Source: Nitrososphaerota archaeon
Lineage (GTDB): Archaea; Thermoproteota; Nitrososphaeria_A; Caldarchaeales; Calditenuaceae
DNA length: 32,000 bases
Assembly (NCBI GenBank): GCA_041641295.1
Contig: JBEPYO010000001.1
Location: 485,262-517,261, forward strand
Direction: 5' to 3'
The position numbers and the translations under genes were made by a program. This document shows positions 7,948 through 8,997 of this stretch, one piece after another. A model generated the notes under the pieces. That model was given only the letters and a program-made list of their open reading frames with translations. It did no database searches and was not told the origin of the DNA. Numbering within the stretch: position 1 is the stretch's first letter; each line of letters begins with the position of its first letter.

Positions 7948-8250
7948 TCAGCCGCCAGACCCCCTCCCCATCTCCCTGAGCCTGGCCTCTATCTCCGCGA
8001 TCCTCTTCTTCAGCTCCTCTATCTCGGCCTTGTTATGTATGTTGGCCGCCAGGTTCATCGAGTCTAGGATGGTTATCTCACCCAAGCCGCCCATCGCAGC
8101 GTGCTCCTGGCCCCAGACCTCCCTGATCAGCGTGTCCAAGGCCCTCCTATGCCTCTCCTCCCTTAGAAGCGGTCTATAGGTCCGCCTAAGCCGCTCCACA
8201 ACCTGCCTGTAGAGCTGTCTGAAGGGAGGGGTAATCCTACCCAAGCCCAC
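7948..8250 (-). CDS. 100-aa Arg-rich protein with C-terminal coiled coil, unknown function
   Basis: The ORF overlaps the upstream gene by 14 nt and ends 32 nt before the polB GTG. The C-terminus KAEIEELKKRIAEIEARLREM shows a heptad-like pattern. I recognise no family. Confidence 0.5.
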   Translation of the reverse strand: MGLGRITPPFRQLYRQVVERLRRTYRPLLREERHRRALDTLIREVWGQEHAAMGGLGEITILDSMNLAANIHNKAEIEELKKRIAEIEARLREMGRGSGG

Positions 8251-8947
8251 CAGCCAGGGGGAGGATCCGAGGGAGACCAGCCGCGGAGCAGGCAGCGAAG
8301 CGTGCTTGACGAGCCTGGCGACTAGGCCCGAGCCCCTCAGGGCGAAAAAACACTATCACTGCAGCCCTATGAATGATCTGGGCCGGGAGCTTGGGCGTGG
8401 CGCGGGCCGGGTCTGGTGAGTCTTCTATGGAGGGGGCTGTGACCACCAGCGGTGCAGAGGCCCTAGAGGCGGCCTCCATGAGGATTGAGACCGACTTGAC
8501 GAGGGCGGATGAGGCCTCGCCGCCCTCCCTATCCAGGAAGGCTGGGGCGTTGTGCATGGCTATGAGCGCCACCCTCCCCCTCTTTCCGATATCCTCTGAG
8601 AGCTCCTCAGCCGCGCAGACCTGCCGCCTAGCGTTGAAGGCCGCGGCGCAGCGTATTGCTGACAGGACCTTGAGGGGCTCTACACCCGCCATCTTCGAGA
8701 CTGTCGAGAGGGATGTGGCGTCGATGAGTGTCTTCTCGCCATAGTAGTCAGTGTTGTTCAGATACGCCACCCACCCGTGCCTCGAGGCCTCAACCATCAG
8801 CCTGTAGAGCACGAGGTCGGTGACCACCCGGTCCCCGTAGAAGATGTGCAGGGCTCCGGGCCTAAGCCCACCTATCAGAGCGTCAAGCCGCTCCAAGCCG
8901 GTTGGTACTGGGCGGCGGAGAAGCATCAGCTCGGAGGCCCGTTTCAT
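8237..8947 (-). CDS. RadA/RecA-fold paralog with degenerate Walker A and B motifs
   Basis: VPTGLERLDALIGGLRPGALHIFYGDRVVTDL aligns to RadA [34 protein letters not shown], but GxxGxGKT is replaced by GDRVVTD. The Walker B position reads VALIAMHN with no Asp. GGAGG lies upstream of the ATG at 8947. Confidence 0.6.
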   Translation of the reverse strand: MKRASELMLLRRPVPTGLERLDALIGGLRPGALHIFYGDRVVTDLVLYRLMVEASRHGWVAYLNNTDYYGEKTLIDATSLSTVSKMAGVEPLKVLSAIRCAAAFNARRQVCAAEELSEDIGKRGRVALIAMHNAPAFLDREGGEASSALVKSVSILMEAASRASAPLVVTAPSIEDSPDPARATPKLPAQIIHRAAVIVFFRPEGLGPSRQARQARFAACSAAGLPRILPLAGGLG

Positions 8948-8997
8948 CAAGACTCATCAACGCCTCCGGGGGGAGACCACCCTCCCGGCCCACGCAG

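Follow-up and report, generated by a model that had tools for sequence, protein, structure and literature searches.

Family-B DNA polymerases of the PolB2 group are encoded in predicted operons with two partners, an inactivated RadA (arCOG07763, arCOG04294 and arCOG08101) and a small helical protein (arCOG07300) (Makarova, Krupovic & Koonin 2014; PMC4104785). These partners have been renamed iRadA and PPB2, respectively, and AlphaFold-Multimer models suggest that PolB2, iRadA and PPB2 form a heteropentamer with a stoichiometry of 1:1:3, in which the binding site of iRadA on PolB2 is a RadA-like beta-alpha oligomerisation motif (Timinskas, Timinskas & Venclovas 2025; PMC11791011). According to these published models, iRadA would be a docking subunit of the damage-tolerance polymerase PolB2 and would act together with a PPB2 trimer. 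In the same paper, iRadA-PPB2 fusions are reported, an N-terminal 'MGRT' arm with Arg3 and Arg9 is described for PPB2, and free PPB2 from the fusions is ascribed to internal initiation at internal Shine-Dalgarno (SD) motifs. Here we analyse an open reading frame (ORF) of 237 codons at positions 8237-8950 of a 32,000-nucleotide stretch (the window) of a Calditenuaceae genome. This ORF covers the 5' portion of an iRadA-PPB2 gene, and a comparison of its relatives suggests that iRadA is likely to be read to its end only through a +1 move at a conserved TTT TTT C, that is, by a programmed +1 frameshift. ATPase-dead RadA homologues beside PolB2 were first described over a decade ago; the new element is the way in which the iRadA-PPB2 gene appears to be decoded. 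Frameshifting is mentioned 0 times in PMC4104785 and PMC11791011, and the pattern of a T6C sequence (six T followed by C), an open +1 frame and TAATG is described in neither.

The locus shares with the published iRadA-PPB2-PolB2 operons a RadA fold without the N-terminal domain and without the ATPase residues, a three-helix partner of approximately 95 aa with an MGR(I/T) arm containing Arg3 and Arg9, for which fusions are known, and the same gene order. The polymerase is likewise a family-B enzyme and may share the decayed exonuclease and the intact DxD motif, as reported for members of the TACK group (Thaumarchaeota, Aigarchaeota, Crenarchaeota and Korarchaeota). The locus differs from the published operons in that a conserved change to the +1 frame occurs inside the RadA fold and in that radA itself heads the cluster. 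The ORF is identified as iRadA, because the fold, the loss of motifs, the synteny and the literature all match; it thus represents an already described family, not a new class of paralogs. The features of the locus are summarized in Table 1.

Table 1. Features of the iRadA-PPB2 locus and its neighbours, in coordinates of the window
Feature	Position	Strand	Remarks
radA	8998..10017	-	canonical recombinase with intact GEYGCGKT P-loop; heads the cluster
Annotated ORF	8237-8950	-	237 codons, TTG start
iRadA core, 0 frame, codons 1-202	8345..8950	-	Rad51/RadA-type fold without N-terminal helical domain
Proposed +1 shift site GTG TTT TTT CGC	8342..8353	-	T6 = 8350-8345, C = 8344
Strands beta9-beta10 ALRGSGLVARLVKHASLPAPR, +1 frame	8281..8343	-	homologous to RadA strands; E204-212 and E219-223 in the P0010 model
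0-frame tail RPEGLGPSRQARQARFAACSAAGLPRILPLAGGLG, then TAG 8239-8237	8237..8344	-	'disordered' C-terminus of an earlier note on this stretch; Ala/Arg/Pro-rich
iRadA-PPB2 linker, +1 frame	8245..8280	-	pN/pS 0.92; length and sequence vary over the family
PPB2 (arCOG07300), +1 frame	7948..8244	-	TTG 8244-8242 in place of the ATG of relatives
100-codon ORF	7948-8250	-	GTG 8250 as listed start; 14-nt overlap with the 237-codon ORF
PolB2-type family-B DNA polymerase	5849..7942	-	first canonical start GTG 7915 (ORF 5849-7915)

The close homologues P0010 and P0011 are proteins of 331 aa and correspond to the 237-codon ORF plus the downstream 100-codon ORF. When TTTC at the proposed shift site is read as a single step, the window gives a 333-aa protein (P0012) that is 63% identical to P0010 from end to end. 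The +1 reading after GTG TTT TTT CGC, FFALRGSGLVARLVKHASLPAPRLVSLGSSPWLVGLGRITPPF..., matches the fused homologues residue for residue, and from codon 203 onwards the +1 frame continues into the 100-codon ORF. Immediately 5' of the T-run, the +1 frame contains the stops TGA TAG. An earlier note on this stretch had accepted the 3' boundary of the ORF and had read its last 50 aa or so as a disordered C-terminus. Neither holds, since this tail, which begins at codon 203, is an out-of-frame reading, and the TAG that closes it is formed by the conserved Gly-Arg codons GGT AGG of PPB2. Because the segment shifted out of frame corresponds to the two strands beta9 and beta10, the 237-aa product would lack two strands of the core. 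Annotation pipelines give two 'hypothetical proteins' at such a gene, one of them with a false C-terminus.

The gene is present in all eight genomes of the genus, a member of Calditenuaceae, and in no other genus of the class. The 12-nt site and the interruption are identical in seven of these genomes. The eighth (G033) carries an uninterrupted gene with GTC CTC CTC AGC at the site, and thus no T-run. Both states, interrupted and uninterrupted, are seen in further metagenome contigs, and all other full-length genes of the family that were found (approximately 21 genomes of 6 families) are uninterrupted. On the order of the fused and interrupted states within the genus, IQ-TREE gives a trichotomy, and FastTree places the fused subclade as sister to the interrupted ones. 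A genome-wide scan of the window genome (G000) for other T6-linked frame junctions gave only this gene and two ordinary gene ends.

To which frame the region after the T-run belongs is indicated by the ratios of nonsynonymous to synonymous polymorphism (pN/pS), which were computed over the seven interrupted genomes. The ratio is 0.33 for the iRadA core in the 0 frame. For the 21 codons after the T-run, which encode the beta9-beta10 hairpin, the +1 frame gives 0.27 and the 0 frame 1.52. The whole 0-frame tail gives a pooled ratio of 1.05, indicating no selection at the protein level. As controls, 21-codon windows were taken from the rest of the gene, 494 of them out of frame and 247 in frame. 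Their medians are 1.4-1.6 and 0.26, respectively; none of the 494 out-of-frame windows has a ratio of 0.27 or lower, and none of the 247 in-frame windows has one as high as 1.52. Variable sites are distributed as 13/17/26 over the three codon positions of the +1 frame. In G000, G034 and G029, neither ATG nor GTG nor TTG occurs between the +1 stops TGA TAG and the hairpin segment. These results indicate that translation runs on from the core into the hairpin segment in the +1 frame, because selection on this segment is as strong as on the core and no canonical start is available for it in three of the seven genomes.

GTG TTT TTT CGC is the only conserved point at which the frame could be switched. 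GTG TTT TTT is invariant in the seven genomes, in which only 32% of the columns with an invariant residue keep one codon. In the window genome, TTT is the minor Phe codon (30%), CGC accounts for 9.5% of the Arg codons (6.8 per thousand), and GCC, which is the first codon in the +1 frame, is the commonest Ala codon. The genome encodes a single tRNA-Phe(GAA), which pairs with UUU by wobble and with UUC by Watson-Crick pairing. Among its 1054 long ORFs, in-frame TTT TTT CGC is found in this gene only. T6 runs are twofold depleted in these long ORFs (80 observed against 160 +/- 13 expected from synonymous shuffling), which is consistent with oligo-T serving as a signal for archaeal transcription termination. 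T runs of six or more are the rarest homopolymers in the long ORFs of G000. Outside the window, ARAGORN detects two 94-nt tRNA-like genes with the four-base anticodons atag and cccg (G000 C1:191617-191710 and C1:306791-306884). They are probably intron-containing tRNAs, and these anticodons would read neither UUUC nor CGCC.

The T6C sequence is also found in distant relatives in which iRadA and PPB2 are fused in frame. Every in-frame iRadA-PPB2 fusion with Phe-Phe-Arg at the end of the strand uses the codons TTT TTT CGN. This was tallied at 14 loci, namely 11 distinct loci, two loci found later and L026, and the genomes concerned span 31-58% G+C. For the 11 distinct loci, the probability of TTT TTT CGN predicted from local codon usage is 0.0015-0.05 per locus, and the sum of log10 P is -20.9 if the loci are independent. 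Between the T-run and the PPB2 ATG, no stop interrupts the +1 frame in any of the T6C fusions; among the 20-21 genes without T6C, this holds for 5 (Fisher p of approximately 7e-5, with relatedness ignored). The first +1 stop overlaps the PPB2 ATG, as TAATG or TGATG, in 12 of the 14 T6C fusions and lies 10 nt further on in the other two. When this position is compared between genes with and without T6C, the stop lies on the ATG in 9 of 11 and 0 of 21, respectively (Fisher p of 2e-6, again with relatedness ignored). L026 and both later-found loci carry T6C with the +1 stop at -2. The +1 peptides of the in-frame T6C fusions are not conserved. The -1 frame of the in-frame relatives is closed early and irregularly by non-conserved stops. 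In a FastTree phylogeny of the family, the T6C genes are paraphyletic, and at least three nested lineages have lost both T6C and the open +1 frame.

The PPB2 part of the gene has a pN/pS of 0.16. It begins with the arm (M/L)GRITPPFR, in which Arg3 and Arg9 are present, followed by three helices (H238-256, H260-282 and H289-325 in the P0010 model), and approximately 60 stand-alone proteins of about 95 aa match it from the same Met. At the position of this Met, a start-type codon (ATG, TTG or GTG) is found in all eight genomes of the genus. It is preceded by GGTGG, which partially matches the anti-SD sequence at the 3' end of 16S rRNA, GGATCACCTCC. The classical two-gene form of iRadA and PPB2 is seen at L093, L095 and L096, which come from the metagenome-assembled genomes (MAGs) 'archaeon DX2.bin21', 'FK4.bin31' and 'TL1-5.bin24'. 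At these loci, iRadA is complete and includes the hairpin, three codons separate its end from the PPB2 ATG in a different frame, and no T-run is present at the Phe-Arg position.

A programmed +1 frameshift at this site may proceed as follows. While the rarely used CGC occupies the A site, the tRNA-Phe(GAA) paired with UUU in the P site would move forward by one base to UUC, and decoding would resume at GCC to give the 333-aa iRadA-PPB2 fusion. Ribosomes that do not shift would stop at UAG 8239-8237, five bases past the start-type codon of PPB2 (TTG in the window, ATG or GTG in sister genomes), and could reinitiate at the PPB2 start to produce free PPB2. Both the fusion and additional PPB2 would then come from one mRNA, in line with the demands of a 1:3 stoichiometry. 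On the simplest reading of the in-frame T6C fusions, ribosomes that enter the +1 frame at U6C would terminate on the PPB2 AUG (UAAUG or UGAUG), where they could reinitiate. The arrangement in the genus of the window would be permuted, with the fusion arising from the shift and not from standard decoding. The U6C cassette is probably old, because U6C is kept at the nucleotide level in distant fusions together with an open +1 frame. We tentatively propose, as a possibility that falls somewhat short of probable, that TACK iRadA-PPB2 genes contain an ancient programmed +1 cassette, consisting of UUU UUU C, an open +1 frame and a stop overlapping the PPB2 AUG, which would split ribosomes between fusion and free PPB2 and thereby set the 1:3 ratio, and that in the permuted Calditenuaceae genes the shift became obligatory for a complete iRadA. 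If so, this cassette would represent the first case of a conserved +1 frameshift among cellular genes of archaea, and frameshifting would be coupled to termination-reinitiation in a new way. The +1 site is kept at synonymous positions in lineages of 31-58% G+C and is tied to termination on the start of the partner. It would also offer a possible mechanistic answer to a question left open in PMC11791011, namely how three PPB2 per iRadA are obtained from fused genes. No earlier report of the T6C junction or of its counterpart in the family was found in the literature searched. The locus provides a concrete and cheap test system for archaeal +1 frameshifting.

The closest archaeal case of recoding is fucA1 of Sulfolobus (Saccharolobus) solfataricus, for which a programmed -1 frameshift on A-AAA-AAT has been demonstrated experimentally (PMC1616953; PMC8211752). 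In a 2021 review, fucA1 is the only demonstrated archaeal cellular frameshift, and no +1 case is shown (PMC8211752). fucA1 resembles the iRadA-PPB2 gene in being a cellular gene of an archaeon for which two overlapping ORFs are annotated. Its full-length product depends on a frame change at a homopolymer-rich heptamer close to rare codons, and its uninterrupted homologues lack the slippery sequence. The two genes differ in that the fucA1 shift is -1 and has been shown by experiment, whereas that of iRadA-PPB2 would be +1 on UUU-UUU-C and is proposed from comparative evidence. Among bacterial genes, prfB undergoes a +1 shift at CUU UGA C, and recoding of dnaX sets the ratio of its tau and gamma products. 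The mechanism proposed for iRadA-PPB2 resembles that of prfB, in which a tRNA in the P site shifts its pairing forward by one base as a poorly decoded codon sits in the A site, and its proposed outcome resembles that of dnaX, in which two products of a single gene are supplied to a polymerase-associated complex in a set ratio. However, the A-site codon is a stop codon in prfB and a sense codon, CGN, in iRadA-PPB2; searches at the iRadA-PPB2 site gave neither a conserved SD-like stimulator nor an RNA structure; and neither prfB nor dnaX couples a stop in the shifted frame to reinitiation on an internal AUG, as proposed here.

The same protein products would be obtained by transcriptional slippage, if RNA polymerase dropped one U, or added two, on the T6 run and thereby brought part of the mRNAs into frame. 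The core of the conserved site is a homopolymer, archaeal RNA polymerase responds to oligo-T tracts as signals to pause or terminate, such tracts are depleted in the ORFs of this genome, and the failure to detect a ribosomal stimulator would be accounted for. Nevertheless, slippage is an unlikely explanation. Six bases are short for productive slippage, judging from general knowledge of bacterial cases, and the usual addition of one base would lead into the -1 frame, which in relatives is closed by early non-conserved stops. In addition, the base after the run is always C, with Arg always encoded by CGN and never by AGR. This invariant C speaks against slippage, because the slip of tRNA-Phe onto UUC needs it and slippage of the polymerase does not. 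That T6C is kept for a reason other than decoding, either as an oligo-T attenuator or terminator that limits PPB2-PolB2 or as a tract for mutational on/off switching, so that the frame break is incidental, is very improbable. The selective avoidance of T-runs in the ORFs of this genome would fit a role as a signal, and a mutagenic polymerase would be a plausible target of tight control. However, neither the constant CGN Arg and the T6C-specific open +1 frame with its end on the PPB2 ATG, nor the selection on the +1 hairpin in the interrupted genes, is explained in this way, and phase variation predicts a mixture of T5, T6 and T7, whereas all seven species have T6.

Alternatively, the gene may be split and not recoded, in such a way that a protein consisting of hairpin, linker and PPB2 is made from a near-cognate start and complements the core in trans, or that only PPB2 is made from TTG or GTG and the hairpin is dispensable. 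A near-cognate start is indeed present just 3' of the T-run, as CTG in five genomes and as ATG in one, and the start-type codon at the PPB2 Met has GGTGG ahead of it in all eight genomes. Natural two-gene arrangements of iRadA and PPB2 exist, and internal initiation of PPB2 in fusions has been proposed (PMC11791011). Such a split is nevertheless quite unlikely, since +1-frame selection acts as strongly on the 21 codons ahead of any canonical start as it does on the core, which indicates that these codons are translated, the three genomes named above offer no canonical start for the hairpin, CTG has no SD sequence at a usable distance and is replaced by TTC in G031, and T6C and the open +1 frame of the in-frame relatives are left unexplained. 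A decaying pseudogene or an assembly error in a homopolymer is scarcely credible. Both classically leave a single-base break at a T-run, and the ORF is intact in one genome of the genus. However, the same break is present in seven independent species-level assemblies and in further metagenome contigs, the regions on its two sides are under purifying selection (the core at 0.33, the hairpin at 0.27 and PPB2 at 0.16), and further stops or indels have not accumulated. Sequencing error and pseudogenization are effectively excluded, because the break recurs in independent assemblies and both of its sides are under selection.

Several points weigh against a programmed +1 frameshift at this site. The frameshift is deduced from comparative sequence, and the role of iRadA in the PolB2 complex comes from published models. 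Much the same set of approximately 35 loci, of which two represent a later replication, served both to notice the family-wide pattern and to test it, and the p-values for it take no account of shared descent. In-frame TTT TTT is present in 33 other long ORFs of the genome, and T6 alone therefore cannot be an efficient shift site. The RNA downstream of the site folds no better than shuffled sequences (z from -1.9 to +1.25), with weak covariation, and a search for an SD-like stimulator gave no conserved candidate, with GUGAU found 5' of the site in the closest species only. CGC is merely moderately rare, and tRNA-Arg(GCG) is present. The point of the shift can be placed only within approximately 31 nt, and RPEG in the 0 frame also resembles the family consensus RxxG. 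Finally, the truncated 0-frame product has no obvious use.

The assignment of the ORF to the RadA fold required phmmer against PDB, a family profile and a fold comparison, because BLASTP of the ORF against the neighbouring RadA found nothing and Pfam and NCBIfam scans of the ORF, with RadB and KaiC models included, gave no significant match. These RadB and KaiC-type models match the neighbouring radA. The fused homologues carry a precomputed match to PF26485. By phmmer, residues 15-214 of the ORF align with residues 7-220 of the core of Pyrococcus furiosus RadA (6tuu; E=1.4e-3), and a profile built from 38 family members matches the RadA gene in essentially every genome of the phylum at approximately 1e-30. 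An AlphaFold2 model was made for P0010 as a natural uninterrupted homologue of the conceptual product P0012, and has a predicted local distance difference test (pLDDT) score of 87.3. The best Foldseek matches of this model are RAD51, RadA and DMC1, at approximately 1e-14. Only 13 residues precede the core entry PTGxxxLD in the ORF, whereas the adjacent radA has about 95 more there. At the Walker A position, YGDRVVTDL replaces GEYGCGKTQ of RadA in a loop that is two residues shorter, and the Walker B strand reads LIAMHN against VVVDS of RadA, so that His-Asn replaces the Asp. GxxxxGK[ST] is found at the P-loop position in none of 117 family proteins of at least 200 aa, and the loss of the P-loop is therefore family-wide and not that of a local pseudogene. 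The proposals of the earlier note that the N-terminus is RadA core-like and that both nucleotide-binding motifs are erased are thus borne out by the alignment, the profile, the structural model with its Foldseek matches and the survey of relatives.

The earlier note had also stated that the known archaeal RadA paralogs retain a P-loop. This is wrong, because the 'inactivated RadA' arCOGs had already been described (PMC4104785). RadB, aRadC and other active archaeal RadA paralogs share with iRadA a RadA core without the N-terminal helix-hairpin-helix domain; they keep GxxxxGK[ST] and the Walker B Asp, whereas the iRadA family has neither. The suggestion of a dead RecA-fold paralog akin to Csm2/Psy3 or ImuA stands in part: a non-catalytic subunit with a predicted link to translesion synthesis fits, and a new class does not. 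As a concept the analogy is apt, since the bacterial ImuA-ImuB-DnaE2 cassette and Pol V (UmuD'2C-RecA) and the Csm2-Psy3 pair of the yeast Shu complex also use non-catalytic or RecA/Rad51-fold accessory partners in damage tolerance. However, iRadA does not belong to these groups at the sequence level, its best matches being RadA, RAD51 and DMC1, and its partner polymerase is of family B rather than of family C or Y.

In the window, radA, iRadA, PPB2 and PolB2 follow each other in this order on the minus strand and are tightly packed. The radA gene is recognized by Pfam Rad51 (2.9e-85) and by the NCBIfam RadA equivalog (3.9e-119). Among the loci of 23 relatives, PolB2 lies directly 3' of iRadA-PPB2 at 17, so that the order iRadA-PPB2-PolB2 is repeated there, and radA lies directly 5' of iRadA in at least seven, as seen in short flanks only. 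The named relatives include Methanosuratincola, Methanomethyliaceae, Nitrososphaeria and Calditenuaceae/Caldarchaeales MAGs, and the proteins are all annotated as 'hypothetical protein'. The polymerase of the window matches Pfam DNA_pol_B weakly (2.5e-20, 46-73 bits) and NF004416 (2.2e-68), retains the motifs DFDSQYPS and YGDVDS in its translation, and is a second, divergent family-B polymerase of its genome. Its putative assignment to the PolB2 group is based on operon context and motif inspection.

The conserved N-terminus of PolB2, (R/S)(I/L)EGW(I/V)LD(V/A)YVLD, begins 5' of the first canonical start GTG 7915 (window 7913-7950), and this GTG is replaced by GTT or GTC in sister genomes. The conserved block is headed only by ATA 7942-7940 (ATT in G033, CTG in G030), which lies 5 nt past the PPB2 stop and directly behind GAGGAG(G). 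This pattern suggests that PolB2 may start at a non-AUG codon or by termination-reinitiation. A -1 shift on a G5 run that would fuse PPB2 to PolB2 was rejected, since G029 has a stop in the PolB2 frame 3' of the run. At L042 (G393:C3:149141-152668), only the C-terminal third of iRadA-PPB2 remains ahead of PolB2, and an oppositely oriented 505-aa ORF takes the place of the N-terminal part; the operon looks truncated or rearranged there. On the other side of the cluster, the largest subunit of RNA polymerase is encoded by a single unsplit gene of about 1300 codons (10827-14807, minus strand), which is followed by L30e, NusA and then the radA cluster.

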